Source: an uncultured Gammaproteobacteria bacterium
GTDB lineage: Bacteria > Patescibacteriota > Microgenomatia > Daviesbacterales > UBA10151
Reading direction: 5' to 3'
Assembly: GCA_964415615.1 (NCBI GenBank)
Contig: CAYQAW010000007.1
Coordinates: 1-59,103, forward strand
Length of the DNA stretch: 59,103 nucleotides
Of this stretch, positions 14,729 through 59,103 are shown in pieces. Made by a program: the position numbers and the translations under genes. Position 1 is the stretch's first letter, and every line of letters begins with the position of its first letter. Below the pieces are notes generated by a model. That model ran no database searches. It was not told where the DNA came from and was given only the letters and a program-made list of their open reading frames with translations.

Positions 14729-14782
14729 AATCCAGGTTACAGTTTACAGTTAACAGTTAACAGGTTACAATTAACCCAGCTT

Positions 14783-14853: not shown

Positions 14854-14858
14854 CCCAT

Positions 14859-30258: not shown

Positions 30259-30337
30259 TAGCTTTCAGCTATCAGTCTTCAGTCATCAGACTAAAAATTT
30301 CAAAGTCTGAAAGCTGACAGCTGAAGACTGACGACTA
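30259..30337 (+). repeat. Empty heptamer-arm hairpin upstream of rplJ
   Basis: TAGCTTTCAGCTATCAGTCTTCAGTCATCAGAC-spacer-GTCTGAAAGCTGACAGCTGAAGACTGACGACTA. Confidence 0.9.
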
Positions 30338-30363
30338 CAAAACTCCTTGAAAGGAGTTTTTTT

Positions 30364-30885
30364 ATGAAAACAAGATTACAAAAAGAAGAAGCAGTTGTAA
30401 AATTATCAGAAAAATTAGGTAAAGCAAAAGCCATAGTTTTTGCAGACTATAAAGGCATGAGTATGAAGCAGCTCTCAGACTTAAGAAATAGCCTCCGTGA
30501 TGTTAATGGAGAATTTAGTATTACCAAAAATACTTTGCTATCCCGGGCACTACCAACTACCAACTACCAACTACCAACTGAATTAGAAGGCCCAACTGCC
30601 ACACTCTTTGCCTATGATGATGAAATATCCCCTATTAAAATTTTAGTCAAAGCCCTCAAAGATGCTTCCTTAGGTAAAATCAAAAGTGGGTTTTTAGGCA
30701 CCATAGCTTTAGAAGAAAGCAAAGTCCTGCAACTTGCAACCCTTCCTACCAAAGATGAACTCCGGGGCAAAACTGTGGGAGTATTAGTTGCTCCTTTGCA
30801 AGGCATTATTTCAGTTCTACAAGGCAACTTAAGAAATCTAGTATACACACTTTCCGAAATCCACAAAGCGAAGGGGGGTGAGTAA
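30364..30885 (+). CDS. rplJ: 50S ribosomal protein L10
   Basis: 'DYKGM', 'KNTL', 'LEGPTA', 'LATLPTK'. Confidence 0.96.
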   Translation: MKTRLQKEEAVVKLSEKLGKAKAIVFADYKGMSMKQLSDLRNSLRDVNGEFSITKNTLLSRALPTTNYQLPTELEGPTATLFAYDDEISPIKILVKALKDASLGKIKSGFLGTIALEESKVLQLATLPTKDELRGKTVGVLVAPLQGIISVLQGNLRNLVYTLSEIHKAKGGE

Positions 30886-30960
30886 ATAGCTATCAGTAGT
30901 CAGCTCTCAGCTATCCCGATTAAATCGGGACGACTGAAGACTGATGACTGAAAGCTAATT
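30886..30960 (+). repeat. Heptamer-arm hairpin between rplJ and rplL with a CCCGATTAAATCGGG palindrome at its apex
   Basis: Arms and central palindrome read directly from the sequence. Confidence 0.9.
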
Positions 30961-34657: not shown

Positions 34658-34718
34658 ATCGCTGGTGTCATTCTACCAACCCAAAAACATAGTCACAAGA
34701 TATACTAAAGGAGTCAAA

Positions 34719-34810
34719 AGCTATCAGCTATCAGCTATCAGCCATCAGCTTTCGGCTATCAGACTTAAATTGTGACCGTCTGACAGCTGACGACTGACTA
34801 CTGACGTCTA
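34719..34810 (-). repeat. Heptamer-arm hairpin starting at the PEGA gene stop codon
   Basis: (GCTATCA)n arm and inverted (CTGACAG/CTGACGA)n arm. Confidence 0.9.
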
Positions 34811-36028
34811 CTTAAGATTTATACCATAGAGGTTGGGTTCTGAGGCAGTAGGAGTTGGGAATGAGCTGATAATAACCAACCTGGATGAATCCAACCAGGG
34901 AAAAACAAAATTATCCTGAAAACTGCCAGCATAAATCACAGCTTTATTAGTACCATCAAAATCCACGACTGATATTGTTCCTTCTTCAATTAAGATAATG
35001 TGCATTGAATCTGGCAGCCAAATATGAGATTTGGCTGGAGGAATGGCATATTCTTTTCTATCTTTTAAATCATAAACTTTCACCGAGCTATCAGTCTTCA
35101 GTATCGCTTCGCCCGCCTTCAGCGTGGCTTCGCTGTCAGCTGTCAGACTTTTTGTTTTGTCTGACGACTGTGGGCCCCCGAAGGGGAAGACGACTGACGA
35201 CTGATTTACTACCATAAATTTGGTCTCGTCTGGCGACCAGCGGACATTGGCAGAACCAGAGGCAATCTGACGTAAATTAATATCTTTGATAGCCAAAATT
35301 CTTGAAGTATTCTTATTTTGAGTATCTTCATCCCAAGATTTTAAAGTAGATTGCAAAAGAGGTGTGATATCCCTGGGATCAGAATTCAATCTATCAAAAT
35401 CCAACAGATAATTATTATCATCTACCCCAATTTTATCGGGGTCTACTGTTGCCAAGACTTGTTTGGAATCAGAAGACCATTTAAGTGTGGCTTTGGAAAA
35501 ATCTGCGATTGTATTCTGGACAATCTGGTGTGGCTCTGAAGATCTGACAAAAGAAATTGGTTGATTCCGCATCTGGGTCCAAACCCAAATCCCACCTTTC
35601 TTAGTGAAACCGGGCACAATATAAGCAAGCTTGCTGCCATCAGGAGACAAAGTAGCATTATCTACTCCAGTAAAAGTTAATGGATAAATAGTAGGGATTG
35701 CCGGAAAAAGAGTTACCTTAATTGCTGTCACTAAACCTTCTTTTACAGACACTTGTTTCTCCCAAGGAATAAAACCTTCTTTTACCACCTTTACTGAATA
35801 ATCTTTAGGAGGCAGCGATGGAACTGTGGCATTAGTGGCAGTAGTCAGATGCCCATCTATATAAACTGAAGCAGCATCTGGCTCTGAAGAAACAGTGATA
35901 ATTCCAGTTCCAACTATCCTTTTTTCTTTTTGAGAAAAGGTATAACCTTTAGCGAAAAGTATAGCTATACCAGCTACAACTGCAATTACCAGCAAGGTTA
36001 CTATGGTAATAATGAATCTTTTACTCAT
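34808..36028 (-). CDS. PEGA domain membrane protein with beta-propeller-like C-terminus
   Basis: TM, then 'VSSEPDAASVYIDG...YSVKVVKEGF'; 'LSPDG', 'WSPD' repeats. Confidence 0.88.
   Translation of the reverse strand: MSKRFIITIVTLLVIAVVAGIAILFAKGYTFSQKEKRIVGTGIITVSSEPDAASVYIDGHLTTATNATVPSLPPKDYSVKVVKEGFIPWEKQVSVKEGLVTAIKVTLFPAIPTIYPLTFTGVDNATLSPDGSKLAYIVPGFTKKGGIWVWTQMRNQPISFVRSSEPHQIVQNTIADFSKATLKWSSDSKQVLATVDPDKIGVDDNNYLLDFDRLNSDPRDITPLLQSTLKSWDEDTQNKNTSRILAIKDINLRQIASGSANVRWSPDETKFMVVNQSSVVFPFGGPQSSDKTKSLTADSEATLKAGEAILKTDSSVKVYDLKDRKEYAIPPAKSHIWLPDSMHIILIEEGTISVVDFDGTNKAVIYAGSFQDNFVFPWLDSSRLVIISSFPTPTASEPNLYGINLK
35086..35202 (-). repeat. 117-bp palindromic composite element inserted in frame in the PEGA gene
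   Basis: Near-identical to 44851-44973. Confidence 0.92.
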
Positions 36029-44596: not shown

Positions 44597-47095
44597 CTAG
44601 TTGCCAGTAACAAAGCTAACTATTTTACCAGGGATATACACAATTTTTTTCACAGATTTTCTATCCAAAAATTTCCCCACCTTTTTACTGCCTTTGGCCA
44701 TTTTTTCTACAACCTCTCTATTTCCTACTATATCCTTCTGTATCACTAATACATCTCTAACTTTTCCATTAACTTGAACAGCTATTGATATTTCTTCTTC
44801 CTCCAGGAATTTACTAGCAAATTTGGGCCAAGACTGCTGATGTATAGAGAAGCTATCAGTCTTCAGTATCGCTTCGCCCGCCTTCGGCGTGGCTTCGCTG
44901 TCAGCTGTCAGACTTTTTTCTGATTTTTTGTCTGACGACTGTGGGCCCCCGAAGGGGAAGACGACTGACGACTTTAATATCTCCCATAACTCTTCTGTAA
45001 TATGAGGCGCAAATGGAGCTAGTAGCATCAAGAAAGTTTTATACTCCTCTGCAGAGATCTCTGCTTTCCTGGAAAGATAATTCAACCATTCCATGAGGCT
45101 AGAAATAGCAGTGTTAAACTTTAACTGCTCAATATCCTCTGTCACTTTCTTAATCGTCTTATGCATTATCCTTAAATCGTTCATCGTTAATCGTTCATCG
45201 TTAATCGTTAATCGTTCCTGTAACATCCAGACTCTTTGTAAAAAGTGATATGCTCCATTAACTCCATCAGGATTCCAAGAAGTAACTATATCAAAAGGGC
45301 CTAAAAACATTAAATAAAGCCTGATAGCATCGGCACCATAACTTTTTACTTCTTCATCAGGATTGACCACATTCCCCTTAGATTTGCTCATCCTGGCTCC
45401 ATCAGGACCTAAAATCGTACCATGGTGAATCCTTTTTTTGGCATATTCATCAAAATTTATTAACCCTAACTCTTTAAAAATCATGGTAAAAAACCTGGAA
45501 TATAAAGCATGGCCTAAAGTATGCTCAGGTCCCCCAATATAAATCTCGAGCGGCATCCATTCAGCAGCAATATTTTTATCAAAGATTGCCTGGTCGTTTT
45601 CCGGATCCAGGTATCTAAAAAAATACCAGGCAGAATCCACAAAAGTATCCATAGTTTCAACTTCCCTTTTAGCAGGCCCACCACATTCAGGACATTCTGT
45701 ATTAACCCAATCCTCTGCTGTAGCCAATGGAGGCTTACCATGAGGAGCATAATCCACCTTGTAGGGAAGTTCTACTGGTAAATCTTTTTCTGGAACAGGA
45801 ACAGCCCCATCTTTATCACAATAAATCATTGGGATAGGTGTGCCCCAATAACGCTGTCTTGAGATTGACCAATCATGAAGATGATAGTTGGTGGTTCTTT
45901 TTCCTAAATTATGTTGCTCTAAATAATCTGATATTTTTTCCCTGGCTACCTTGTTTAGCAATCCATTATATTCTCCGCTATTTACCATTTCTCCATTGCC
46001 TATATAAGCTGCTTTGGATATATCCCCGCCTTTAACAACTTCTCTTATCAATAGATCAAACTTTTTGGCAAACTCATAATCTCTTTGGTCATGGGCTGGC
46101 ACGCCCATAACTGCACCTGTTCCATAGCCTACTAATACATAATCAGCTACCCAAACTGGAAGTTTCTCACCATTAATTGGACTTTTGACATAAGAACCAG
46201 TAAATACTCCTGTTTTTTCTTTATTTTCTTTTCTTTCCAGCTCGCTTTTCTTTTTTGCTTGTCGGATATACTCTTCGACCGCTAATTTTTGTTCAGGCAT
46301 AACTAAAGCGGCTAGCAAAGAATTTTCAGGACTGATAACTATAAATGTAACCCCAAATATCGTGTCCTGACGGGTACCAAAGATTTCTATGTTATCAAAC
46401 TTTATCACTATACCTTCTGATCTGCCAATCCAATCATTTTGCCCTACTCTTAAAGACTTAGGCCAATCTGCCTGAGGTGGCTCTTGCCAGAGTAATTTAT
46501 CTGCAAAAGCAGTAATCTTAAAAAACCACTGGTCAATTTCTTTTTGGACCACCTCTGTTCCGCATCTCCAACATTTACCGTCCTCAACATTTTCATTAGC
46601 AAGTACAGTTTGATCTTTTGGACACCAGTTTGACAGTAATTTTCCCCTGTAAGCCCAACCTTTTTCTAGCATTTTCAAAAAAATCCATTGATTCCACTTA
46701 TAATACTTAGGATCACAAGCTACCATAGTTTTTGTCCAATCAATTGATGTACCTAAAGTTTCAAATTGATCTCTCATCCGCTCCATATTTTTATATGTCC
46801 AGTCTCGGGGGTGAATGCCGTTTTTAATGGCAGCATTCTCAGCAGGCAGCCCAAATGCATCAAAGCCATTAGGAAAAAGCACATTAAAACCCTGCCTGGA
46901 TTTAAACCTGGCTAAAATATCACCCATGGTAAAAGTAAACCAATGACCCATATGTAGATCGCCAGAGGTATAAGGCAGCTCGACTAAAACATAGTATTTG
47001 TCTGTCGATTTAGAAAGATCAGTTAAATAAAGACTCTCCTCTCCCCACTTCTTCTGCCACTTGGGCTCTATATCTTGAGGAATGTATTTCTTCAT
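44597..47095 (-). CDS. leuS: Leucine--tRNA ligase
   Basis: 'LHMGH', CP1 editing domain 'GTGAVMGVPAHDQRD', 'RMSKSKGN'. Confidence 0.98.
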   Translation of the reverse strand: MKKYIPQDIEPKWQKKWGEESLYLTDLSKSTDKYYVLVELPYTSGDLHMGHWFTFTMGDILARFKSRQGFNVLFPNGFDAFGLPAENAAIKNGIHPRDWTYKNMERMRDQFETLGTSIDWTKTMVACDPKYYKWNQWIFLKMLEKGWAYRGKLLSNWCPKDQTVLANENVEDGKCWRCGTEVVQKEIDQWFFKITAFADKLLWQEPPQADWPKSLRVGQNDWIGRSEGIVIKFDNIEIFGTRQDTIFGVTFIVISPENSLLAALVMPEQKLAVEEYIRQAKKKSELERKENKEKTGVFTGSYVKSPINGEKLPVWVADYVLVGYGTGAVMGVPAHDQRDYEFAKKFDLLIREVVKGGDISKAAYIGNGEMVNSGEYNGLLNKVAREKISDYLEQHNLGKRTTNYHLHDWSISRQRYWGTPIPMIYCDKDGAVPVPEKDLPVELPYKVDYAPHGKPPLATAEDWVNTECPECGGPAKREVETMDTFVDSAWYFFRYLDPENDQAIFDKNIAAEWMPLEIYIGGPEHTLGHALYSRFFTMIFKELGLINFDEYAKKRIHHGTILGPDGARMSKSKGNVVNPDEEVKSYGADAIRLYLMFLGPFDIVTSWNPDGVNGAYHFLQRVWMLQERLTINDERLTMNDLRIMHKTIKKVTEDIEQLKFNTAISSLMEWLNYLSRKAEISAEEYKTFLMLLAPFAPHITEELWEILKSSVVFPFGGPQSSDKKSEKSLTADSEATPKAGEAILKTDSFSIHQQSWPKFASKFLEEEEISIAVQVNGKVRDVLVIQKDIVGNREVVEKMAKGSKKVGKFLDRKSVKKIVYIPGKIVSFVTGN
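44851..44973 (-). repeat. 123-bp palindromic composite element inserted in frame in leuS
   Basis: Near-identical to 35086-35202. Confidence 0.92.
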
Positions 47096-47120
47096 AATAA
47101 CCTGATGTTAACATAAAAGC

Positions 47121-47198
47121 CGTCAGCTGTCAGCTTTCAGTCATCAGCCTTTTAATTTTTTAAATCTGATAGCTGAAGACTGACTACTGATAGCTATT
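47121..47198. repeat. Heptamer-arm hairpin upstream of leuS
   Basis: (GCTGTCA/GTCATCA)n arm, AT spacer, inverted arm ending TAGCTATT. Confidence 0.85.
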
Positions 47199-47369: not shown

Positions 47370-48338
<969 letters not shown>

Positions 48339-48339
48339 C

Positions 48340-48410
48340 GAGAGACTAGTCGCTAGAGTCTAGTAGCTAGTATAGTATCTTGACTCTTGACTCTAGACTC
48401 TTGTCACTTT
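48340..48410. repeat. Heptamer-arm hairpin of the TAGAGTC/GACTCTA family (related arm at 47281-47312)
   Basis: GAGACTAG..TAGAGTCTAG arm versus (CTTGACT/CTAGACT)n arm. Confidence 0.7.
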
Positions 48411-48428
48411 CTGTCGTATCATCTACTT

Positions 48429-49115
48429 ATGCCCACTCTGCCCTTGGATTTAACCACCCTACTGTTAATTTTTACCATCGTTTTAATCACAATTCTCTAT
48501 CTTCGTGAATATAACCAGAGAAAAAAACTTGAATCTTCTGAAGAGAGGTTCTTAGAACAATTCAAGGAGAAAGGCTGGAATACTTTACATAAATCCATCC
48601 AAAAATCTCAGGATTTACTGGGACAGGCAGAACTGGAAGGCATAAAAGTAGTAGCTGGCAGCAAAATTGAAACCTCCAAAATGGAGCAGGATTTTTCAAA
48701 AGAAATCTCTCAGTCTCTACTTGCATCTAAGCAAACTATAGCTTCTGCCCAAAATCAGCTTTTACAATTTATGACAGACTTACAAAAAAGAAGCGCTGAA
48801 TTTGAGGAAGCTAGCAAAAAAACAGGAGAACAAAGAATCAACCAGCTATTTGGCAGAATTGAAGAAAGACTAGCTGATCTGCTGGTACAGACAGAGCAAA
48901 GAACCACCTCTTCCATTGAACTGGAGTTAAAAAGCACCAGACAACTAATTGAAACTTATAAAAACGAGCAGCTTAAACTGATTGATGAAAATATTGTGGC
49001 CATGATGGAACAAACTTTAGGTATAGTCTTAAGCAAAAAACTGTCTTTAAAAGACCAACTGGATATTATTTATGAAGCACTTGAGAAAGCTAAGGTGGAG
49101 AAATTCATTGTATAA
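48429..49115 (+). CDS. Single-TM coiled-coil protein, F0 subunit b-like
   Basis: N-terminal TM, long charged helix, position in the atp operon. Confidence 0.55.
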   Translation: MPTLPLDLTTLLLIFTIVLITILYLREYNQRKKLESSEERFLEQFKEKGWNTLHKSIQKSQDLLGQAELEGIKVVAGSKIETSKMEQDFSKEISQSLLASKQTIASAQNQLLQFMTDLQKRSAEFEEASKKTGEQRINQLFGRIEERLADLLVQTEQRTTSSIELELKSTRQLIETYKNEQLKLIDENIVAMMEQTLGIVLSKKLSLKDQLDIIYEALEKAKVEKFIV

Positions 49116-49208
49116 ATAGCTATCAGCTATCAGTCTTCAGTCATCAGACAAGAAAAGTCTGACAGCTGACAGCTGACAGCTGACAGCGAAGCGATACTGA
49201 AGACTATT
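49116..49208 (+). repeat. Empty heptamer-arm hairpin filling the stop-to-start gap
   Basis: TAA|ATAGCTATCAG...GAC-aagaaaa-GTCTGACAG...GAAGACTATT|ATG. Confidence 0.92.
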
Positions 49209-49682
49209 ATGGATGACACGCTGGCCGTTATTTTAAAAGACACCTATTCCTTATCCCAACTCAAACATAGACTGAGGATCTTAAAATCCTCTCTTTTGAG
49301 AGCATTTTTTGGAGGAGAAAACCTCTCTTTTACTCCTGAACAACTAAGCTGGCTCAAATCCCTGCCCACTGAGTTTTATCAAAAATTTAACAAAGATAAT
49401 GTTTACCAAATCTTTACTGAAATTGACAAGGAGATGGGCAAACTTAAAACCTTAACTATGTATTTAACTTTTGAACCAGATGAGATGACTTTAGCCCAAC
49501 TAGGCACCTATATCAGAACCAATTTTGGTCCAAATTTCCTTTTGGATATTAAATTGAAACCAGACCTTATTGCTGGGCCTGCTTTAGTATGGAAAGGAAT
49601 TTATAAAGATTATTCTCTGAAAGCTAAACTGGAAAGTAAAAATACAGAAATTTTGCAGGAATTTAAGAAGTTCTTAAGGTAG
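49209..49682 (+). CDS. atpH: ATP synthase delta/OSCP-like subunit (divergent)
   Basis: C-terminal 'LDIKLKPDLIAG...KDYSLKAKL' resembles the delta C-domain; directly upstream of atpA. Confidence 0.6.
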   Translation: MDDTLAVILKDTYSLSQLKHRLRILKSSLLRAFFGGENLSFTPEQLSWLKSLPTEFYQKFNKDNVYQIFTEIDKEMGKLKTLTMYLTFEPDEMTLAQLGTYIRTNFGPNFLLDIKLKPDLIAGPALVWKGIYKDYSLKAKLESKNTEILQEFKKFLR

Positions 49683-49770
49683 TCGTCAGCCATCAGTTTT
49701 CAGCTATCAGACTAAAAAATTAAAAATCTGAAAGCTGACAGCTGAGAGCGAAGCGATACTGAAGACTATT
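49680..49770 (+). repeat. Empty heptamer-arm hairpin, atpH-atpA
   Basis: Arm begins with the TAG stop and ends GAAGACTATT 3 nt before ATG. Confidence 0.92.
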
Positions 49771-49773
49771 ATT

Positions 49774-51222
49774 ATGAATCAAAACGAAGTAGGTTATGTT
49801 GTATCAAGCAGGGATTTTCTAGTTTACCTAAATGGCTTCCCCACCATCAGAGTTAATGACATGGTGGAATCTGATAATAATCTCCGTGGCTGGGTTAATT
49901 CTACCCTAGAAGATAAAATTGAAGTTCTGATGTTAGATGAAGGAGAAATCAAACCAAAGCAACAATTTAAAAAACTACCTAACCGTTTAGGAATTGCTGT
50001 AGGAAATTCATTGCTAGGGCGGGCAGTCAACCCTTTAGGAATACCTATTGATGGTAAGGGCCTACTTTCCCATACTAAATCTACTGATATCTCAGAACTG
50101 GACAAAGAGGCCCCTGGAATAGAATCCAGAGAATTTATTACCACCCAATTTTTAACAGGAATAACTTTAATTGATACTTTGATTCCTCTGGGACAAGGCC
50201 AAAGAGAACTGGTTTTGGGAGATGCCCATTCTGGTAAAACAGGCTTCTTGATTGATACAGTTATAAATCAAAAAAACACTGGTGTAATTTGTGTGATAGC
50301 CTCAATTGGCAAACCTGCTGTGACAGTCAGGAATTTGATTGATACCCTAAAAAACAATGGTGCTTTGGATTATACAATTGTGGTTGCCACATCTTCTTCT
50401 GAACCAGCGCCTCTAATTTTTTTAACTCCTAAAACTGCCATGACTATTGCTGAATATTTCCAAAAACAGGGCAAAGATGTGCTGTTGATATTAGATGATT
50501 TAGGCTCGCATGCCAAAATCTACCGGGAAATTTCCCTGCTCGGCAACAAAGCCCCAGGCAGAGAATCTTATCCTGGAGATATTTTTTACCAGCATGCTCA
50601 TTTACTGGAAAGGGCTGGGAATTTTTTGCCACAATTTGGCGGAGGTTCTATCACAGCTCTACCTGTAATCGAGCTTAATTTAAATGATTTTACTACTCTT
50701 ATCCCTACAAATGTGATGTCCATGACTGATGGACATTTAATGTTTAAAGCTTCTATGCGTTCCCAGGGACAAATACCAGCCATAGATATTTCTTTATCAG
50801 TATCCAGAGTAGGCAGGCAAACTCAAAACCATTTAACTAATTTACTTTCTACTAAAATCAGGCAAGTTCTATCTGAAGCAGCAGATTTGGAAACAGTTTC
50901 CAGATTTTCTTCAGAACTACCAGCAGAAACTCAGCTGATATTAAAAAGAAGAGATTTAATCATGGAAATTTTAAAACAAGAATCTTTAACTGCTGTAGTC
51001 AAACAAATTCAAGTTATACTTCTGGCACTCCCCTTTACCAAATTCTTGCAGGATAAAAACAAAGCTTTTGTTGAAAAATATAAACCAATAATTATTGAAA
51101 ACTTTCTAAAAAATCCTGGACTTGTACCAATTACCAAATCCATCAACCAGTTAAAAAGTGACGAGGAATTAATAAAAATGCTGGAGGGAGCAGGACCAGT
51201 ACTGACAAAAATCTGCCAATAG
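49774..51222 (+). CDS. atpA: F1 ATPase alpha subunit (divergent)
   Basis: 'GQGQRELVLGD..SGKT', 'PGRESYPGDIFY', 'SMTDG', 'SVSRVG'. Confidence 0.93.
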   Translation: MNQNEVGYVVSSRDFLVYLNGFPTIRVNDMVESDNNLRGWVNSTLEDKIEVLMLDEGEIKPKQQFKKLPNRLGIAVGNSLLGRAVNPLGIPIDGKGLLSHTKSTDISELDKEAPGIESREFITTQFLTGITLIDTLIPLGQGQRELVLGDAHSGKTGFLIDTVINQKNTGVICVIASIGKPAVTVRNLIDTLKNNGALDYTIVVATSSSEPAPLIFLTPKTAMTIAEYFQKQGKDVLLILDDLGSHAKIYREISLLGNKAPGRESYPGDIFYQHAHLLERAGNFLPQFGGGSITALPVIELNLNDFTTLIPTNVMSMTDGHLMFKASMRSQGQIPAIDISLSVSRVGRQTQNHLTNLLSTKIRQVLSEAADLETVSRFSSELPAETQLILKRRDLIMEILKQESLTAVVKQIQVILLALPFTKFLQDKNKAFVEKYKPIIIENFLKNPGLVPITKSINQLKSDEELIKMLEGAGPVLTKICQ

Positions 51223-51310
51223 CTATCAGCTATCAGTCTTCAGCCATCAGACTAAAAATTTCAGAGTCTGAAAGCTGAAAGCTGAGAGCGAAGCGATACT
51301 GAAGACTATT
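51220..51310 (+). repeat. Empty heptamer-arm hairpin, atpA-atpG
   Basis: TAG stop inside the arm; GAAGACTATT directly before ATG. Confidence 0.92.
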
Positions 51311-52159
51311 ATGACTATAAAACAAATTGATGCAGCGCTGGAAGAAGGACAATCTTTAAAACAGATTGCTCAAGCTTATTCTGAAATTGCCAATCTGAAA
51401 ATTAAAAGAATCAGAACAGAGGTGGAAAGAAACAGGGTCTTTTTTAAAGAGATTGAAGGAGTTTATGCTTTGATTAAAAATCTGGCTGTCAGGAGAAAAA
51501 CAAATATTACCAAACCTAAAAAGACAATCAGCATAGTTTTAACTTCAAATCACAGGTTTTATGGCAACATTAACTCTGATCTATTAAAGTTTTTTGTAAG
51601 TTCTACTCAAAACTTAGATACAGATAGAATCATGCTGGGCAAGGCTGCAATAGATTATTTCAGGGCTGATCCCATATTTAAAGATTACCAGGAAATAACA
51701 TTAAAAGAGGACCAGCCAGATAGTGTTGAGCTGTTGGCTTTAACAAATATGGTCAAGGATTATAACCAAGTACTGGTTTTTTATTCCAGTATGAAAAGTT
51801 TACTAGTCCAGCAACCTGTGGTAACAGATATCACAGCCTCAAGTACACTCGTAGCAAGCGATCCCAATCTCCATCCTCAAAACAAAGAAGGATTTAAATT
51901 TATCTTTGAGCCGGATTTAGGTAAAATATTGCATTTTTTTGACAGTCAAATCATCACTCTACTAATTGAGGGGACATTTTTAGAATCTGAACTCTCCAGA
52001 ACAGCTTCCCGTTTTGTTTCCATGGATGGTGCAGAAACGCAGGCAAATAAATTTCTTAAAGATTATCAATTGATTAAAGCATATGCTAAAAGAAACATGG
52101 ACAACAATACAATTTTAGAAAATTTTGCTACTATGATAGCTGTAAGAAAGGAGCATTAG
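51311..52159 (+). CDS. atpG: F1 ATPase gamma subunit (divergent)
   Basis: 'IVLTSNHRFYGNIN', 'SELSRTASRFVSMDGA'. Confidence 0.88.
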   Translation: MTIKQIDAALEEGQSLKQIAQAYSEIANLKIKRIRTEVERNRVFFKEIEGVYALIKNLAVRRKTNITKPKKTISIVLTSNHRFYGNINSDLLKFFVSSTQNLDTDRIMLGKAAIDYFRADPIFKDYQEITLKEDQPDSVELLALTNMVKDYNQVLVFYSSMKSLLVQQPVVTDITASSTLVASDPNLHPQNKEGFKFIFEPDLGKILHFFDSQIITLLIEGTFLESELSRTASRFVSMDGAETQANKFLKDYQLIKAYAKRNMDNNTILENFATMIAVRKEH

Positions 52160-52279
52160 ACAATAGAAGGTAGAAGATAGTATTTTGATAATAGAAGTTA
52201 GATAGTAGATAATTCCATCTTCTATCTTCTATATTCAAAGATCCATTTTCTATTTTCCATCATCTATCGTCAGAACATT
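52160..52279 (+). repeat. Heptamer-arm hairpin of a different family (TAGAAGA/TCTTCTA), atpG-atpD
   Basis: Purine-rich 7-mer arm followed by a complementary pyrimidine-rich arm. Confidence 0.8.
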
Positions 52280-53779
52280 ATGTCAAATCCAACTGTTCAA
52301 AATAGTCCAAATATCGCCTCCACACCTTCCCTAAACCATCAAAATCGGGCCCGCGGAACCATCACCTCCGTCAATGGCCAAATTGCTACTGTTGAGATTG
52401 ACGGCGATATTTTTCCTGAACTTTTTGAGATACTGGCTGCACCCTCTGACCCCTCAGTAATTTTGGAAGTTTTTTCCCAGTCTGAACTTTCAATTTTTGT
52501 CCAGATTTTAAGTAATCCGGATAAACTATTCAGGGGCATGCAAGTTGTAGGCACTGGATCTGATTTAAAAGTCCCTGTGGGGTCTCCTGTTTTAGGACGG
52601 GTTATAGATTTATTTGGAATTCCCAAAGATAATGGCAAGGCAATAACTACAGATAAAAAAAGCTCTATTTATTCCAAAGCGCCATCTTTAAATATCGTTA
52701 AATCAACCTATCAGGTTTTAGAAACAGGCATCAAGGCTATAGATTTCCTGACCCCCATACAAAAAGGTGGAAAAGTGGGCTTTATAGGAGGAGCAGGTGT
52801 AGGAAAAACTATTTTACTTACAGAACTCATGCACAACATTACCTTAAGACCAGCCAGTTCACACCTCCCAGGTGAGCATAAGCTGCAGACTGAATCACAC
52901 CTGGGAGGTGAAAGTAAACCAGTCTATTCTGTATTTGCAGGTGTAGGAGAAAGAATTAGAGAAGGACAAGAGTTGGTTCAACGTTTACAAGAATCAGGAG
53001 TTTTACCTAAAACAATCCTGGTGCTGGGACAAATGAATGAAAATGCAGCTATCCGTTTCAGGATAGCTTTAGCAGCAGCAGCCCAGGCAGAATATTTTAG
53101 GGATGAAATAAAATCAGATGTGCTATTTTTTATTGATAATATGTTCAGGTATGTTCAGGCAGGAGCTGAGGTAGCAACGCTTCTGGGTACTATCCCCTCT
53201 GAACAAGCCTATCAGGCTACTCTTCAAACAGAGGTAGCAACCCTAGAAGACAGACTAATCCCTACAGGAAATGGGGCGATTACTTCTTTCCAGAATGTGT
53301 ACGTGCCAGCAGATGAAATTTCCGATGCTGGAGTAGTAGCTGTTATGTCGCTTCTGGATAATGCCATAGTACTATCACGTTCTGTTGCCCAAAAAGGTAT
53401 TTACCCTCCTATAGACTTATTCCAGTCCTCTTCTTCTACTGCTTCCAGGTCTTTCTTAGGTGAAGTGCATTTTAAAGCTTTAACAGAGTTTCAAAAGATT
53501 CTGGAAAACTATAACAAACTATCACACATTGTAGCAATTGTCGGAGAAGAAGAATTATCCCCGGAAAACAGGATACTTTATAACAGGACCAAAAAAATAA
53601 TAAATTATCTAACCCAGCCTTTTTTTATGACCGAAAAACAAACTGGCAAAAAAGGAGTTTATGTTTCCAGAGAGACTAGTGTAAAAGATATCGCAATAAT
53701 ACTTTCTGGCTCATTAGATAACACCCCAGCAGAAAAATTTATGTACATTGGATCTCTGGCTGACGCCAAGATAATATAG
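52280..53779 (+). CDS. atpD: F1 ATPase beta subunit
   Basis: 'GGAGVGKT', 'GVGERIREG', 'GQMNE', 'IDNMFRY', 'YVPADE'. Confidence 0.96.
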   Translation: MSNPTVQNSPNIASTPSLNHQNRARGTITSVNGQIATVEIDGDIFPELFEILAAPSDPSVILEVFSQSELSIFVQILSNPDKLFRGMQVVGTGSDLKVPVGSPVLGRVIDLFGIPKDNGKAITTDKKSSIYSKAPSLNIVKSTYQVLETGIKAIDFLTPIQKGGKVGFIGGAGVGKTILLTELMHNITLRPASSHLPGEHKLQTESHLGGESKPVYSVFAGVGERIREGQELVQRLQESGVLPKTILVLGQMNENAAIRFRIALAAAAQAEYFRDEIKSDVLFFIDNMFRYVQAGAEVATLLGTIPSEQAYQATLQTEVATLEDRLIPTGNGAITSFQNVYVPADEISDAGVVAVMSLLDNAIVLSRSVAQKGIYPPIDLFQSSSSTASRSFLGEVHFKALTEFQKILENYNKLSHIVAIVGEEELSPENRILYNRTKKIINYLTQPFFMTEKQTGKKGVYVSRETSVKDIAIILSGSLDNTPAEKFMYIGSLADAKII

Positions 53780-53855
53780 CTTTCAGTCATCAGTCTTCAG
53801 CTTTCAGACTTTTCTGATTTGTCTGATGACTGACAGCTGATAGCTGACGACTATT
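53777..53855 (+). repeat. Empty heptamer-arm hairpin, atpD-atpC
   Basis: TAG...GACGACTATT|ATG. Confidence 0.92.
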
Positions 53856-54122
53856 ATGCAAACCTTACATGTCAGAATCATCTCCCCTCAACAACTAATC
53901 TTAGATACTACTGCTTCCTCAGTCAGCTCCAAAAACCCCCAGGGGAATTTTGATATCTTACCCCAACATGCTAATTTTATAACCATTGTAGAAAATGAAC
54001 CTATTGTGGTAAGAACGCTGGACCAAAAATCTGTAACTTTTAAATTTCCTCTAGCTATAATTTTAACAAGAGAAAATAAGGTGAGTATTTATACATATAT
54101 CCAGCCTCAATTAGATAAGTAG
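53856..54122 (+). CDS. atpC: F1 epsilon subunit, N-terminal beta domain only
   Basis: 'LHVRIISP', 'GNFDILPQHANFIT'; 88 aa, no C-terminal helices. Confidence 0.85.
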   Translation: MQTLHVRIISPQQLILDTTASSVSSKNPQGNFDILPQHANFITIVENEPIVVRTLDQKSVTFKFPLAIILTRENKVSIYTYIQPQLDK

Positions 54123-54241
54123 TAATTTTCAAGTACCAATTATCAATTTACAATGAATTTTCAATGATTCAATTACCAATGTTTGAAAATTATTCCATTG
54201 ATCATTGATTGAAAATTGCAAAATTGAAAATTGTAAATTAA
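54120..54241. repeat. Heptamer-arm hairpin (AATTTTC/GAAAATT family) after atpC
   Basis: (CAATTNN)n arm versus (AAAATTG)n arm. Confidence 0.75.
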
Positions 54242-54482: not shown

Positions 54483-57400
54483 ATGGAAAAACCGTCTGCG
54501 AAAAAAGTTAATAGTTCAGAGTTAATAGTTAATAGTGAAAAAACTACAAACTACAAACTACAAACTAATAACTTCGTTAAGATTGGCCAAGCTTCTGAAA
54601 TCCTCGGAGTTTCTATTGACACCTTAAGAAGATGGGAGAGGCTTGGAAAAATCACAGTTCAAAGAACCCCCGGCGGAACAAGACTTTACCCTCTGTCTGT
54701 AAAAATTGGTGATGCCTCTAAAATTTTAGGAGTTTCTATTGACACCTTAAGAAGATGGGAAGCAGCTGGCAAAATAGCAACCATCAGAACCTCTGGCGGA
54801 ACAAGACTTTATTCCTTAGTATCCTTAAGCAGAAAAAATAAAGCTGAGCCTAAAAACACCAATAGCACAGAAGAATTACTCAAAAAAACTAACTCCGATT
54901 CAAAAAATATATCACCTAGCTCTTATATTATTCCTACATCTACTCCTATCACTCTGGAGAAAACAAAGGATATAAACAAATTCTTAATTGGAGCTGGATT
55001 TACTTTGGTAGTAATTTTAATAATTTCTGGCTTCATGGTTGCTTCTTTCCAAAAGAAAAATGGGCTATCTACCAACTACCAACCCCGATTCAATCGGGGC
55101 CAACTACCAACTACCAACTCTAATGTCCTGGCTGTAACAACTGTTTCTAAATATCTAGAAATAAACAGCGATACTCAAATCAATGGGTCTTTATCTGTGC
55201 GTGATGGCATCAATGGTTTAACCTTGGAAGCTACTCCTTCAACAAATAGCATTGCTTTAACATCAGGAGATACTACTTTGACTGTAACAAAGACTGCCAA
55301 ACTAGATCAAGATGTATCAACTACCTCTACTCCTACCTTTGCCAGTCTTAATTTATCCTCTACTAAAAATCAACTAGTTTTCCAAAGTGGTGGACCCACA
55401 GGCACTTTAACCTGGACTCCAACTGGTGCAAGAATTGTAACCTTACCTGATGCCACCACAACCTTAGTTGGTAAAGATACTACTGATACTTTAACCAACA
55501 AATCCATTTCTGGTTCTACCAATACTTTAACTAATATCCCCAATTCTGCTTTAACCAATCCATCTGTTACTGTAACTGCTGGGACCAACTTAACTGGTGG
55601 AGGAACTGTTGCACTAGGCGGTTCAGTTACCCTTGCTCTAAAAGACTCGCCTGCTTTTACTGGTCAGGTTCTGCTAACTGATGGAACAGCTGCTGCCCCA
55701 GCTTTAGCCTTCAGCAGTGATATTGATTCAGGTCTATATCTAATTGGTACAAACAAGATCGCTCTGATCACAGGAGGCACAGCTACCTCAGGTATTACTA
55801 TTGATGCATCTGGTAATTTAGGAGTAGCTAATAATGCTCCAGCATATAAATTAGACGTGACAGGCACAGCCAATATTACTTCCAATACTACTATTGGTGG
55901 AACTTTGGGAGTAACGGGCGCCTCGACTCTCTCTTCGACCCTAGGGGTATCTTCAGGATTATCTGTTGGTTCTGCTTACTACTCGCTTTCGCCACCACCA
56001 AATGGTGCCATTATAGAAGGTAATGTCGGAATCGGAACCAGCGCGCCTGGTTCTTTTGCGTTAAATGTAAACGGTGATGCTAATATCACCGGGAGCCTGA
56101 TAACCAGTCAATCTTTAACATTTTCCTCTCTTTCTCAAGGATCAGTTGTCTTTGCAGGCTCATCAGGAACTCTGTCTCAAAACAACCCAAACTTCTACTG
56201 GGATGATACCAATACCAGGCTGGGAATAGGCACCTCTGCTCCTTCTGATACCCTCACTGTCAGTGGTACTAGTTCTTTTGCTTCTACCTTAACTGCTTCC
56301 AATGGTTTAACTCTAACCACAGGAGCTTTAAATTTAACCTCTACCTCAGGAGCTGTTAACTTAGGGTTAACCTCCTCTACTCAAGCATTTAGATTAGGAG
56401 CTGGATTTAACTTTGATTCTACTAACTCCAGAGTTGGTATAGGTTCTACTGCTGCTCCAACTTCTGCTTTAACAGTAATTGGTAATATTGGTATTGGTAC
56501 CTCTGCTGCAGGAGCAGCCTTACAGGTAAATGGCGGAGGACTATTTGGCTGGGGGACAGCTTCTTCTTCCCTCTCTTCTGGAGCTATTTTAGGAGTTAAT
56601 GGAAATGTGGGAGTAGGAACTACTACACCTTTGGCTAACCTGCATGTAGTAGGACAGTGTGTGACTGGAGATACCAGGCTGAGGAGAAGGAAGAAAAAGA
56701 AGAATGGTGAGTGGTCTGATGAATATGAAGATATAGAGATTAAAGATATCCAAACAGGAGACCAAATCCTGTCCTTAAATGAGAGTACTGGTGAATTTGA
56801 ACCTCATACTGTCAAAGCCCTCAAAAATATGGGTAAACAGGGAGTATTCATGTTAGTTACCCAGTCAGGAAAAAGAATTGAAACTACAAATGAACACCCA
56901 TATCTGACTATTACACACCTGGAAGGAGTCAAGGCCCACCTTCCAGGTGCTAATCAACAAAAATCCTCTGTCTTTGAAGTTGATCAATCACCTAAGGTGG
57001 AAATCTTAACCCAAAAATCTGTGGTAGCAATAGCCCAAAAAAATCAAGCATTCACTTTAACAATCTCCAAAGAACTTAAAAGGAAATTGTTTGATAACTA
57101 CTATCAGGACAGACCTAAATTATTTGGACCGGAGATTTTTGCATTCTCCATCATAGATCTTTTACAAAAATCAAACACTTCTATCACCAGATTGGAAATT
57201 GATACTGATTACACAGGATATGGGATAAAGATTACGGCATTAATAAAAAGATTCTATCCGGAAATTGATGTCCGCTTTAAAGAAGTTGGTAAACACTCAC
57301 CTGCTCACTTGGCAGCATACCTTACCCAGACAGGAAGAAAAGTTCAGAAAACCAATAAAAAAGAGACCCTGGCCAATTTGAAACTCAAAGGCTTCTTGGC

Positions 57401-59103
57401 TTCAGAACTGTTGCGCCAGGCGTTTACAAGGGTTCGCAGTCCACATGGTCTCTTAAACATTTCCAAGTATACCACTAAATGGGAAAAAATCAAGTATCTA
57501 AAACCTGGAATGATTATAGCTACAGCTGATGGATGGGAGAAAATACAAACTAAATACTCTACTGGTAAAAAACAAACCTTTGATATAGAAGTTAGTGAAA
57601 CTCATAACTTTGTAGGGAATAATATAGTTGCCCATAATACTTTTATCACTGGTAATGTTGGGATAGCTAACTCTGCTCCATCTTTTACTCTGGATGTAGT
57701 AGGTACTGGTAGATTTTCTTCTGCTTTAACGGCCTCAAATAGTTTAACTCTATCAACTGGAGCTCTAAATTTAACTTCTACCTCAGGCCAAGCTAACTTA
57801 GCTTTAAGCAGTAACACCAATGCCTTTACCGTTAATGGATTGTTTGGGATTGATACACAAAATAATAGAGTCGGCATTGGGACAACTGCTCCAGTTCAAA
57901 CTTTCCAGGTAAATTCAGGCACTTCTTCTATGGTGGTTACTTCAGGAGGAAATGTTGGAATAGGATTTACTTCTCCAACAGCTAACTTACATGTTGTTGG
58001 AACCACCAGATTTGATGGCACCACCACCTCTTATGGCAATATCCTGCCTGGCAATGATGTTACTTATGATCTTGGCTCTTCTGCTGTCAGATGGAATAAT
58101 TTATATGCCTACAACATCACTGCCACCAATATAGCAGGTGTGATTACTGGAGGTTCTACTTCTTCTTCTGATTGGTTAATCAACTCCACCAATACCTCAG
58201 ACAGCGCTAATTCATCTTTAAGCTTTAAAAGAGGCTCTGCTACTAATGCTGTACTGCAGTGGTATGGAGACAATAATACTTTTGATTTTAACTCAGGTAT
58301 AAGAATTGGGGTAAACGGTGGTGCTGCTTCTACCATTGAAAATACTACTGGCTTAGTATTATCTGGTTTTGGAAATGATATCACCACAGGCACTAATGAA
58401 AACTTATCCTTAATTCCCAATGGTACAGGCAATGTTGGAATTGGAACATCCAATCCAACCCAATTCTTCCAAATTAACTCCAATGGTTCCTCAGCTTTTG
58501 TTGTAACCTCCTCTGGAAATGTTGGAATAGGAACAACCACTGCTGATTACAACTTATCTGTTGTTGGTACAGCTAACTTTACAGGCAATGTAGGAATTGG
58601 AGGCACAGCTACTATCAGTTCCCTACTACAGGCAAATGGTGGTTTAACTGTGACTGGATCTTCCATACTTCAAGCTCTGTCTGCTACAGATATATCCTCA
58701 TCTACATTAACCACTACTGGAAATGTGGGAGTAGGAGGATCTTTAACTGTTACAGGTACTTCTACCTTCACAGGACTTTCTACTTTCAATGGTGGAGCTA
58801 CTATTGCCTCAGGACAAAACCTAACATTATCTGGATTTACTTCTGGAGCAGGACTGTTTGCTGGAACATCAGGAGTAGTATCTCAAAACCCATCAAACTA
58901 TTACTGGGATAATACTAACAACAGATTAGGAATAGGTACTTCTGCCCCATCTGCTGCTTTCCAGGTTAATACTAATACCTCAAACCCAGTAGTAATTACC
59001 TCTACTGGTAATGTTGGTATTGGAACCACCTCCCCAGCCATGCTTTTGCAAGTCATGGGTAATGCTGGTTTTGGAGATTCAGTTACAGCTGCCAGGGCTA
59101 GCA
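54483..59103 (+). CDS. Giant surface/fibre-like protein (3'-truncated by the window edge): 2x MerR-type HTH, TM, Thr/Ser/Gly-rich 'GNVGIGT..P' repeats, internal intein
   Basis: Most of the frame hand-translated from ATG 54483 without meeting a stop; its absence from the stop-delimited ORF track fits an ORF running off the window; >1540 codons. Confidence 0.9.
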   Translation, partial: MEKPSAKKVNSSELIVNSEKTTNYKLQTNNFVKIGQASEILGVSIDTLRRWERLGKITVQRTPGGTRLYPLSVKIGDASKILGVSIDTLRRWEAAGKIATIRTSGGTRLYSLVSLSRKNKAEPKNTNSTEELLKKTNSDSKNISPSSYIIPTSTPITLEKTKDINKFLIGAGFTLVVILIISGFMVASFQKKNGLSTNYQPRFNRGQLPTTNSNVLAVTTVSKYLEINSDTQINGSLSVRDGINGLTLEATPSTNSIALTSGDTTLTVTKTAKLDQDVSTTSTPTFASLNLSSTKNQLVFQSGGPTGTLTWTPTGARIVTLPDATTTLVGKDTTDTLTNKSISGSTNTLTNIPNSALTNPSVTVTAGTNLTGGGTVALGGSVTLALKDSPAFTGQVLLTDGTAAAPALAFSSDIDSGLYLIGTNKIALITGGTATSGITIDASGNLGVANNAPAYKLDVTGTANITSNTTIGGTLGVTGASTLSSTLGVSSGLSVGSAYYSLSPPPNGAIIEGNVGIGTSAPGSFALNVNGDANITGSLITSQSLTFSSLSQGSVVFAGSSGTLSQNNPNFYWDDTNTRLGIGTSAPSDTLTVSGTSSFASTLTASNGLTLTTGALNLTSTSGAVNLGLTSSTQAFRLGAGFNFDSTNSRVGIGSTAAPTSALTVIGNIGIGTSAAGAALQVNGGGLFGWGTASSSLSSGAILGVNGNVGVGTTTPLANLHVVGQCVTGDTRLRRRKKKKNGEWSDEYEDIEIKDIQTGDQILSLNESTGEFEPHTVKALKNMGKQGVFMLVTQSGKRIETTNEHPYLTITHLEGVKAHLPGANQQKSSVFEVDQSPKVEILTQKSVVAIAQKNQAFTLTISKELKRKLFDNYYQDRPKLFGPEIFAFSIIDLLQKSNTSITRLEIDTDYTGYGIKITALIKRFYPEIDVRFKEVGKHSPAHLAAYLTQTGRKVQKTNKKETLANLKLKGFLASELLRQAFTRVRSPHGLLNISKYTTKWEKIKYLKPGMIIATADGWEKIQTKYSTGKKQTFDIEVSETHNFVGNNIVAHNTFITGNVGIANSAPSFTLDVVGTGRFSSALTASNSLTLSTGALNLTSTSGQANLALSSNTNAFTVNGLFGIDTQNNRVGIGTTAPVQTFQVNSGTSSMVVTSGGNVGIGFTSPTANLHVVGTTRFDGTTTSYGNILPGNDVTYDLGSSAVRWNNLYAYNITATNIAGVITGGSTSSSDWLINSTNTSDSANSSLSFKRGSATNAVLQWYGDNNTFDFNSGIRIGVNGGAASTIENTTGLVLSGFGNDITTGTNENLSLIPNGTGNVGIGTSNPTQFFQINSNGSSAFVVTSSGNVGIGTTTADYNLSVVGTANFTGNVGIGGTATISSLLQANGGLTVTGSSILQALSATDISSSTLTTTGNVGVGGSLTVTGTSTFTGLSTFNGGATIASGQNLTLSGFTSGAGLFAGTSGVVSQNPSNYYWDNTNNRLGIGTSAPSAAFQVNTNTSNPVVITSTGNVGIGTTSPAMLLQVMGNAGFGDSVTAARAS
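56658..57638 (+). mobile_element. Intein (Hint), 327 aa, with a non-LAGLIDADG insert
   Basis: Block A 'CVTGDT', block B 'TTNEHPY', blocks F/G 'TFDIEVSETHNFVGNNIVAHN', +1 residue Thr. Confidence 0.92.

Follow-up and report, generated by a model that had tools for sequence, protein, structure and literature searches.

The F-type ATP synthase (atp) operon of an uncultured Daviesbacteria genome (deposited as a gammaproteobacterium; NCBI GenBank assembly GCA_964415615.1, contig CAYQAW010000007.1) raises the question of why the spacers between consecutive genes should consist of hairpins, at whose base the upstream stop codon and the downstream ATG come together. An earlier note on this DNA offered two answers: that folding creates a pseudo-contiguous junction, which could allow termination-reinitiation coupling or set subunit stoichiometry, or that the arrangement reflects an insertion preference. 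Analysis of the whole stretch (positions 1 to 59,103 of the contig; 59,103 nucleotides [nt], hereafter the window) and of related genomes indicates that the hairpins are probably copies of a mobile palindromic element similar to a miniature inverted-repeat transposable element (MITE), which prefers tight stop-start junctions and has a long form of the intervening-sequence type carrying a PF05635 gene. Gene calls are simple open reading frame (ORF) calls.

Junction Hairpins of the ATP Synthase Operon

The operon lies at 47.4-54.1 kb on the plus strand; its alpha, gamma, beta, and epsilon genes are named by Pfam. Homologs of its AtpA assign the organism to Candidatus Daviesbacteria (Microgenomates, Candidate Phyla Radiation). 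Four hairpins of one type (TCAG-type) each occupy the entire spacer (76-93 nt) between consecutive genes. Their first triplet, TAG, is the upstream stop codon itself (49680, 51220, and 53777) or begins 1 nt past the stop (49113), and they end in GACTATT, followed by 0 or 3 nt and then ATG (CTA 2-5 nt before the ATG). The earlier note had described this arrangement, and coordinates, sequences, and folds (z -4.0 to -5.3) bear it out at all four sites.

The b/delta hairpin (49117-49206, plus strand; z -4.05) is ORF-less and carries a GCGAAGCGATACTGAAG module on its 3′ side; the stop TAA of the b-like gene (49113-49115) is followed by an A and the TAG of the element (49117-49119), and the closing CTA (49204-49206) by TT and the delta ATG (49209). 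In the delta/alpha hairpin (49680-49768, plus strand; z -5.26) TAG (49680-49682) is the delta stop, and CTA (49766-49768) and TTATT precede the alpha ATG (49774). The alpha/gamma hairpin (51220-51308, plus strand; z -4.02) opens with the alpha stop (TAG, 51220-51222) and closes with CTA (51306-51308), TT, and the gamma ATG (51311); the beta/epsilon hairpin (53777-53853, plus strand; z -4.05) likewise opens with the beta stop (TAG, 53777-53779) and closes with CTA (53851-53853), TT, and the epsilon ATG (53856).

Folding of the intergenic RNAs, a check that the note had proposed, found each of the four hairpins more stable than 200 of 200 dinucleotide-preserving shuffles. The picture of stop and start meeting at the stem base held for the flanking positions but not, in three of the four, for clean UAG:CUA pairing in the minimum-free-energy structure, where the 10-20 nt that lead up to the AUG are predicted to be single-stranded. 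This is because the right arm of those three contains an extra module of about 20 nt, GCGAAGCGATACTGAAGACTA. In the beta/epsilon hairpin the predicted stem base, AUAAUA:UAUUAU, extends to the AU of the AUG. The stems are built of 5-7 bp helices with internal loops of 1-2 nt at 7-nt intervals, since only the TCAG/CTGA core of each heptamer is invariant.

The gamma/beta spacer is filled by a hairpin of another heptamer family (AGAAGAT/ATCTTCT type; 52157-52279, plus strand; z -4.61), whose first triplet, TAG, is the gamma stop. A third-family inverted repeat (TTNNCAA/TTGAAAA; 54120-54240, plus strand) begins at the epsilon stop TAG and folds weakly (z -1.68). The a/b junction (48339-48428) has GACTCTT-type heptamers, with a fold no better than shuffles (z -0.9), and was not counted as a hairpin.

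Empty Sites and the Point of Insertion

Comparison with relatives, which the note had also suggested, used the atp operons of L001, L002, L003, and L004 (AtpA 93, 87, 83, and 80% identical, respectively). At the b/delta, delta/alpha, and gamma/beta junctions these have TAA, 1-7 A/T-rich nt, and ATG, or 4-nt ATGA overlaps: delta/alpha is empty in L001, L003, and L004 and overlapping in L002, and gamma/beta is empty or overlapping in L001, L002, and L004. Because the same junctions are empty in relatives, the window hairpins are insertions. The alpha/gamma junction is a hot spot, with a TAGGGNN-type hairpin in L001 (z -5.2), a GTTAGAN/TCCAAC-type hairpin in L004 (z -7.2), and an element with a PF05635 gene in L003. 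At the window junction of the arginyl-tRNA synthetase (ArgRS) and metallophosphatase genes the sequence is ATG-TGA-GCT-ATG; in another Daviesbacteria sequence (L007) a PF05635 element is found there.

Excision of the segment G...CT from the window yields AGG-TAA-TTATT-ATG, CAA-TAA-TT-ATG, and ATA-TAA-TT-ATG, and preserves the C-termini of the relatives (delta ...LR*, alpha ...CQ*). From this we infer insertion between the TA and the A of TAA, turning the stop into TAG. The TA...TA flanks of the element could also be read as a TA target-site duplication of the Tc1/IS630 kind. That model fits the diverged sequences compared less well, as it would erase the delta, alpha, and beta stops, and the relatives end at the same residues.

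A Long Form with a PF05635 Gene

A full-length element (18328-18739, plus strand) separates a GH1 glycosidase gene from an EamA transporter gene (ATG 18745), in the same arrangement, as the earlier note had recognized. It has the arms of the short hairpins (left arm TAG+(NNNTCAG)x4+AC; right arm ending in CTA) and, in its loop, an ORF of 121 amino acids (aa) (18361-18726) that matches PF05635/TIGR02436 (23S rRNA intervening sequence protein, a four-helix bundle; E 2e-36). The closest solved structure is the pentameric XCC0516 (PDB 2GSC). The ORF begins right after the left arm (GTCAGAC-ATG), with four NNNTCAG units preceding it, and the right arm encodes its last residues and stop TGA; its dN/dS of 0.04-0.17 indicates purifying selection.

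Homologs 84-93% identical are found in other Daviesbacteria (L005 to L009), between the same arms at different gene pairs: 3′ of an undecaprenyl-diphosphate-synthase-like (Prenyltransf) gene in L005, between GH1 and EamA genes in L006 (orthologous to the window copy), between ArgRS and metallophosphatase genes in L007 and L008, and between a Wzy-like gene and a small (86-aa) ORF in L009. The TAG of the element is the upstream stop in four of five of these PF05635 copies, and in L007 a TAA stop lies 6 nt ahead of the TAG. Downstream, the right arm and CTA are followed by TT to TTTT and then the next start codon (ATG).

The loops of the short hairpins retain the ...AAAAGTCTGA end of the long form. 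The arms at 54120-54240 match those around the divergent PF05635 gene between alpha and gamma in L003, which makes this inverted repeat an ORF-less relative of that element. Given the shared arms and loop ends and this parallel in a second family, the short hairpins are best read as ORF-less derivatives of PF05635 elements.

The L001 alpha/gamma hairpin (2076-2164) has TAGGGAC/GTCCCTA heptamers identical to those flanking PF05635 genes in two unrelated metagenome loci (L188 and L205), which suggests that it, too, is an ORF-less derivative.

Two other identities for the long form were examined. The loop protein has no match to known anti-phage defense among the PADLOC profiles, and a defense system was dismissed on that ground. 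A diversity-generating retroelement was rejected, as neither a reverse transcriptase nor a template/variable repeat pair lies beside the PF05635 gene, whose neighbors are the GH1 and EamA genes; other PF05635 copies of the family sit between housekeeping genes. PF05635 genes have been seen inside cas loci (PMC3936711).

The Heptamer Family in the Window

The family plan is TAG-(NNNTCAG)x4-AC ... GT-(CTGANNN)x4-CTA, the right arm sometimes having three units. At least nine full TCAG-type copies are found in the window (18328-18739, 30259-30337, 30887-30957, 34718-34810, 47117-47196, and the four atp copies), with folds of z -3.3 to -6.2 in which the terminal inverted repeats form long stems. 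Alignment of 12 short copies from three genomes shows no variation in the terminal TAG or in the TCAG/CTGA cores, which recur every 7 nt, and shows variation in the three bases between cores; the arms are about 30 nt long. Tandem arrays with a lag of 7 account for 31 segments in the window, compared with 0-1 for lags of 5, 6, and 8-12, and contain many distinct heptamers, in at least four families. Rfam at gathering threshold identified five tRNAs only in the window and no known RNA family for the hairpins.

The rplJ/rplL hairpin (30887-30957, plus strand; z -4.52) lies between the rplJ stop TAA (30883-30885) and the rplL ATG (30964); the earlier note had called this site nearly equivalent, and with its TAA-A-TAG it is of the same kind. 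A hairpin in the divergent region between a DUF5674 gene (minus strand) and rplJ (plus strand) (30259-30337, plus strand; z -3.29) still opens with TAG and closes with CTA without any stop codon involved. Downstream of a PEGA-domain gene, a copy on the minus strand (34718-34810; z -4.52) has as its first triplet (34808-34810) the TAG stop of that gene, with mreB starting about 60 nt beyond. A further copy (47117-47196, no strand assigned; z -6.20) lies where leuS (minus strand) and the atp operon (plus strand) diverge. In this lineage the family has colonized tight stop-start junctions of operons, including the atp operon, rplJ-rplL, and the PEGA-mreB and GH1-EamA gene pairs.

Other copies are translated. 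A composite of TCAG heptamers and nested GC-rich small palindromes (44851-44960, minus strand) lies in frame in a variable loop of leucyl-tRNA synthetase (leuS), and a near-identical sister (35088-35207) is in frame in the PEGA-domain gene. A solo left-arm array, CTATCAG x3 + TCTTCAG (23490-23517, plus strand), is translated in the N-terminus of NusG, and a solo right-arm array (32948-32975) lies within a glycosyltransferase gene.

The small GC-rich palindrome nested inside TCAG elements, GCGAAGC...GCTTCGC, itself encloses GCCCGCCTTCGGCGTGGC and GGGCCCCCGAAGGGG hairpins and is found at 44851-44960 and 35088-35207 and in the right arms at 49187-49206, 49749-49768, and 51289-51308; it recalls the nested very small repeats described in cyanobacteria. 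Part of it, GCGAAGCGATACTGAAG, occurs in three atp copies and in a def/fmt copy of L009.

Further translated heptamer arrays lie in leuS (45171-45221, CGTTAAT/CGTTCAT), rplJ (30543-30584, CTACCAA), the glycosyltransferase gene (33068-33113, CTTTGAA), and the first atp ORF (47560-47599, CTTCACC).

Placement at Stop and Start Codons

Placement was counted in a Daviesbacteria sample of about 100 kb (the window, L005 to L009, and L032) with 18 elements. Sixteen have (A)TAG before and CTA(T/C) after them, and the other two show TAG at the far end on the opposite strand. In this sample the arm ends are enriched at stop and start codons: 12-13 of the 18 lie exactly between the stop and start of co-directional genes, with the start 0-6 nt past CTA and once overlapping it as CTATG. 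Of the remainder, one abuts a stop only, three are in divergent promoter regions, and none is in a convergent region. Tight junctions make up about 1.4% of the non-coding bases of the window with elements removed; under a per-base null, the six of nine window elements at such junctions have P ~7e-10.

Ten stops directly abut an element, and every one of them is TAG, a triplet that accounts for 20-28% of stops elsewhere in the window (P 1e-7 to 3e-6), a result that supports the view that the TAG belongs to the element or arises through its insertion. The insertion preference for stop/start junctions proposed by the note thus draws on the empty junctions of relatives, the presence of one family at unrelated junctions, and this specificity for TAG. 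The GCGAAGCGATACTGAAG module is start-proximal in six of six copies, an asymmetry that suggests that insertion is oriented relative to transcription. Similar hairpins in Acidobacteriota, Verrucomicrobiota, and other groups often abut stops and sometimes starts.

Heptamer Arms beyond Daviesbacteria

A TCAGNNNTCAGNNNTCAGNNNTCAGAC scan of one genome per species identified at least 120 stretches, in many phyla, compared with about 17 expected by chance; approximately 47 of 201 matches have a CTGA arm downstream. At four loci (from a proteobacterium, Pirellulaceae, Terriglobales, and Planctomycetota) a PF05635 ORF lies between the arms. The idea that a PF05635 gene adjoins most TCAG arrays of other phyla was not upheld, such a gene being present, within the DNA examined, at only six of the 120 loci listed; most arrays are therefore solo or ORF-less.

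The converse search began from PF05635 genes in metagenomes (the best 80 matches to one subfamily via protein alignment, 39-69% identical to the window protein). Arrays of 28 nt or more, with a lag-7 identity of 80% or higher, lie beside the gene at 40 of 76 loci; in controls under this strict criterion, distant windows had 0 of 65 and 0 of 63, and lags of 5, 6, 8, and 9 gave 0-1. With a looser criterion (at least three consecutive heptamers), at least one flank is positive at 64 of 74 loci and both flanks at 41, compared with 11 and 0 for a lag of 6 and 5 and 1 for a lag of 8. Arrays typically comprise 3-5 units, and the heptamers vary widely among loci (GTTCGGA, TAGGGAC, CACTTAG, CCAGTTT, GGAGGCA, and others), yet upstream and downstream arrays are complementary within a locus (median score 12, compared with 6 for mismatched loci; P 1e-21).

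Two loci stand out in other ways: an 8-kb sequence from a Verrucomicrobia metagenome-assembled genome (L068) has three PF05635-like ORFs adjoining TCAG-type arrays, and a Myxococcales contig (L045) ends in a GACCTCA array of about 28 units.

Publications on PF05635, on TIGR02436, and on heptamer hairpins in the Candidate Phyla Radiation gave no earlier account of the element, and we found none giving heptamer arms as a general property of PF05635 or placing such elements at gene junctions. The link between PF05635 and heptamer hairpins seems to be undescribed so far, as does homing to stop-start junctions.

Weighing the Explanations

Any explanation has to accommodate the family membership of the copies, the link between long and short forms, the empty sites, the specificity for TAG, the enrichment at junctions, and the heptamer arms around PF05635 genes generally, all of which are established above. 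That the hairpins are a selected RNA device, kept to juxtapose stop and start for reinitiation, or to set subunit ratios by processing or by stabilizing upstream mRNA segments in the manner of REP sequences in Escherichia coli operons, with their origin as repeats secondary, is unlikely. Every atp junction is filled, by several heptamer families, and different elements occupy alpha/gamma in the window, L001, L003, and L004; rplJ/rplL, a classic pair of unequal stoichiometry, is also filled, and the tight or overlapping ancestral junctions imply that coupling is probably ancestral. A GGAG (52150-52153) also sits just before the gamma/beta hairpin, and L004 has AAGGAG immediately 5′ of the ATG there. 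Against this, the b/delta, delta/alpha, and gamma/beta hairpins are missing from all four relatives and are not conserved operon features, and the same sequences recur in divergent promoter regions and in frame in ORFs.

The RNA itself tells in the same direction. Start regions are not masked, and start-codon masking relieved by the upstream ribosome was rejected: the hairpins end before the initiation region, and the predicted unpaired probability at -12 to +6 is 0.50 after hairpins and 0.46 for other genes (P 0.35), the start at 18745, after the long element, being the exception. The sense strand is the more stable in 7 of 15 cases, with 43 G·U pairs compared with 44 in the antisense; since the two strands fold equally, there is no sign of selection for pairing in the mRNA strand. 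Comparison of the window arms with those of the orthologous L006 copy revealed no compensatory changes by inspection; several variable positions differ and the TCAG cores are kept. Nor are the hairpins intrinsic terminators: the arms are followed by CTATT-ATG and no T tract, and a terminator scan did not call the full inter-arm hairpins, its sole match inside an element (51216-51236, minus strand) being a small intra-arm stem. The scan gave 15 terminator-like matches compared with 5.3 in shuffles, all but one in coding sequence. Promoter-like matches are not above shuffles, and internal promoters were rejected. The note was right that the hairpins lack a Shine-Dalgarno sequence, but this does not set them apart: a Shine-Dalgarno-like motif (GGAG/GAGG-type, -20 to -4) precedes only 6 of 59 window genes, so that absence is the norm where about 10% of genes genome-wide use one. 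Restoration of such a site by folding would apply at gamma/beta alone, where the GGAG lies ahead of the hairpin; as the motif precedes no other hairpin and overall use is about 10%, it is no general explanation. Nothing in the sequences demands an adaptive RNA role, which does not make the hairpins inert, and coupling or stoichiometry as the adaptive explanation is weakly disfavored.

If the heptamers are instead putative RNA or DNA sites for an oligomer (the PF05635 pentamer or a ribosome-associated protein) that controls downstream initiation, their inversion would be secondary. It would then be natural that only the 4-nt cores every 7 nt, and not the pairing, are invariant, that solo arrays exist, and that units typically number 3-5, PF05635 proteins being homopentamers (PDB 2GSC; PMC4990558); CTGA-type arrays also lie directly 5′ of starts, like the TAACTGA repeats of Beggiatoaceae without Shine-Dalgarno sites (PMC4679880). 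However, arms are complementary within a locus and heptamers differ between loci, which points to selection or templating of inverted repeats rather than one shared binding motif, and one PF05635 gene in the window faces at least four heptamer families; we consider this account rather improbable. Local origin, by slippage and palindrome amplification in place at AT-rich junctions without transposition, is very improbable indeed. It would suit the many distinct heptamer families of the window and the differing repeat numbers of Coxiella strains (PMC4990558), and heptamers are, according to Mrazek (2007) as summarized in PMC4679880, the commonest long simple repeat in bacteria and thought to be slippage-prone. 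The complex sequence common to copies already largely refutes it: copies at unrelated junctions have their termini, remnants of the loop, and the asymmetric GCGAAGCGATACTGAAG module in common, the PF05635 gene (84-93% identical) moves with its arms to different junctions, and relatives differ by the presence or absence of whole units.

Insertion of a mobile element remains the probable explanation, and several points weigh against it. To our knowledge, no mobility function has been assigned to PF05635 proteins. The long form encodes a PF05635 protein only, and a search of the element, not extended to the rest of the genome, found no associated transposase, integrase, or reverse transcriptase. 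The insertion point, and with it the question of TA duplication, is inferred from diverged sequences (closest AtpA 93%). Junction enrichment under a per-intergenic-region null is moderate (P 0.008 for 12 of 18 elements and 0.06 for the window alone), and selection acting once elements are in place, as opposed to targeting, could account for part of it. Finally, all atp junctions of this genome are filled, by three or four heptamer families, a pattern that may speak for a benefit and not for neutrality.

A Proposed Mechanism

The proposed mechanism is as follows. Elements would integrate, or survive, preferentially in stop-to-start gaps of 1-7 nt. The segment G...CT would enter a TAA stop, or a TAA-like triplet of an A/T spacer, after its second base and without target duplication; the ancestral stop TAA would thereby come to read TAG, with the former spacer and the ATG unaltered past CTA. 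Stop and start would lie at the stem base because the insertion was made into a pre-existing tight junction. A TA^A insertion in fixed orientation without duplication would resemble single-strand, hairpin-dependent transposition (IS200/IS605, REP-RAYT). The long form, always co-oriented with host genes and without room for a promoter, would rely for that reason on read-through transcription from the host operon.

In the mRNA the stem would fold, and a terminating ribosome, in order to read TAG, would have to unwind roughly the initial 12 nt of the left arm and would then adjoin the AUG across the stem base. The refolded junction, together with Shine-Dalgarno-independent initiation on the unpaired A/U-rich leader, would keep the downstream gene expressed; it is plausible that this restored proximity of stop and start explains the tolerance of insertions in essential operons. 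Alternatively, or in addition, RNase III may cut the stem of about 30 bp, which would yield monocistronic RNAs with short leaders and, from the long form, a free PF05635 mRNA; processing of this sort is plausible by analogy with 23S rRNA intervening sequences.

A broader and more speculative possibility, which we hold only tentatively and think doubtful as it stands, is that PF05635 genes with heptamer arms are widespread, self-propagating "intervening sequences of operons" that home to the TA^A of stops, are expressed from host-operon transcripts, are removed at the stem or tolerated in RNA, and spawn ORF-less hairpins that fill junctions. The PF05635 pentamer would read the 4-5 heptamers of the arms and help to move the element without a classical transposase, and the 23S rRNA intervening sequences would be a special case.

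Other Features of the Window

The two ORFs upstream of delta (47496-48338 and 48429-49115) have no Pfam match and have diverged too far for a gene name to be given. In the first, the C-terminus resembles an ATP synthase c subunit, with two hydrophobic stretches, fused to a long N-terminal domain; no recognizable a subunit was found in the operon. AtpD (beta) has an in-frame palindromic insert, TCACACCTCCCAGGTGA ... TCACACCTGGGAGGTGA (52859-52912), just past the P-loop region, which makes it about eight residues longer than the AtpD of L004, itself already with an unusual insert there.

Downstream of the operon lies a giant ORF (54483-59103) that continues past the end of the window and has Pfam matches to MerR/HTH_17 and to intein splicing; it has at least 1555 aa in the source record, and its counterpart in L004 has 2187 aa. 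Heptamer arrays (54503-54576 and 55100-55127) lie in its 5′ part. An apparently ORF-free 3.5 kb after atpC was found to be an artefact, as the giant ORF there extends beyond the window end.

A TTACAGT/TTAACAG heptamer array (14729-14775) lies immediately 5′ of tRNA-Trp (14782-14857). A terminator-like hairpin with a T run (AAAACTCCTTGAAAGGAGTTTTTTT; 30338-30363) ends at the rplJ ATG, and its 3′ half provides one of the few Shine-Dalgarno-like GGAG motifs of the window.

Comparison with Known Systems

Read in this way, the stop and start codons at the bases of intercistronic hairpins are the footprint of a mobile element and not a purpose-built regulator. If stop-start targeting is true, it would be a new safe-harbor strategy for selfish DNA in the compact genomes of the Candidate Phyla Radiation, and the junctions would offer a natural system for studying how an essential operon stays expressed with a hairpin of 76-120 nt lodged in one of its translationally coupled junctions. 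In annotation, the family accounts for "four helix bundle" genes amid conserved operons, for numerous TAG stops, and for unusual peptide inserts in frame.

The elements share with MITEs their terminal inverted repeats, multiple copies, and presence or absence between relatives. The Correia elements of Neisseria are also short, multicopy, gene-adjacent palindromes (70-160 nt) that differ in presence between relatives and have termini containing TA; their transcripts form long hairpins that are RNase III substrates, and they duplicate TA. The present elements differ from them in their heptamer-array arms, their link to PF05635, and the lack of a transposase in the long form, and a TA duplication conflicts with the conserved upstream C-termini.

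Repetitive extragenic palindromic (REP) sequences, with the bacterial interspersed mosaic elements (BIMEs) and inverted doublets (REPINs) that they form, are intercistronic operon palindromes, folding as inverted-doublet hairpins with a GTAG-like tetranucleotide before the palindrome; they affect mRNA stability, and translation when they lie less than 15 nt from a stop codon. A/GTAG precedes the palindrome here as well, but PF05635 cargo, heptamer periodicity, exact placement at the stop, and a start 0-6 nt beyond the end are unlike REP. With regard to the REP-associated tyrosine transposases (RAYTs), no Y1 transposase was found among selected window ORFs scanned against Pfam, and no genome-wide search was made. 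Rickettsia palindromic elements likewise enter protein-coding genes in frame and undergo translation, as do the copies at 44851-44960, 35088-35207, and 23490-23517; they differ in sequence, have neither heptamers nor an associated ORF, and are not concentrated at stop-start junctions.

Avd of diversity-generating retroelements belongs to the same fold and family as the loop protein, and bAvd is a pentameric, nucleic-acid-binding four-helix bundle (PMC10053308); unlike Avd loci, 18328-18739 has no adjacent reverse transcriptase and no template/variable repeats. Tandem heptamers are also known as the TAACTGA repeats of Beggiatoaceae, Cyanobacteria, and Bacteroidetes and the cyanobacterial short tandemly repeated repetitive (STRR) sequences (PMC4679880). 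The TAACTGA repeats (CTGATAA in another phase) share CTGA with the arms described here and, like them, lie mostly a few nt upstream of starts without Shine-Dalgarno sites, are in some cases in ORFs, and are patchy across phyla; they have been proposed to bind a ribosome-associated protein, and they are described as direct repeats, without an inverted partner, PF05635 link, or stop-codon association (PMC4679880).

A close parallel is with the intervening sequences of 23S rRNA. Those occupy helix 25 or 45 of the rRNA; the copies described here lie between or inside protein-coding genes and are many per genome, and the ORF is under strong purifying selection, whereas S23p is decaying in Coxiella. 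Placement at stop and start codons has no counterpart in rRNA, and any excision by RNase III is putative here. The two nonetheless have the same architecture. In Coxiella burnetii and Leptospira, as here, terminal inverted repeats form a stem with a PF05635 ORF in the loop (PMC4990558); the Coxiella intervening sequence has a 28-bp stem in which RNase III cleaves, and GACAGAT x3 just before the S23p ATG (PMC4990558), where NNNTCAG x4 is found in the present element. Both exist in ORF-bearing and short ORF-less forms, the latter as in Salmonella (PMC4990558), and the rRNA sequences are embedded in, and co-transcribed with, a host transcript that still functions, as the present element would be. 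The element connects three subjects so far treated apart: 23S rRNA intervening sequences, the large orphan family of PF05635 "four helix bundle" proteins, and heptamer repeats that have lacked an explanation in several phyla.

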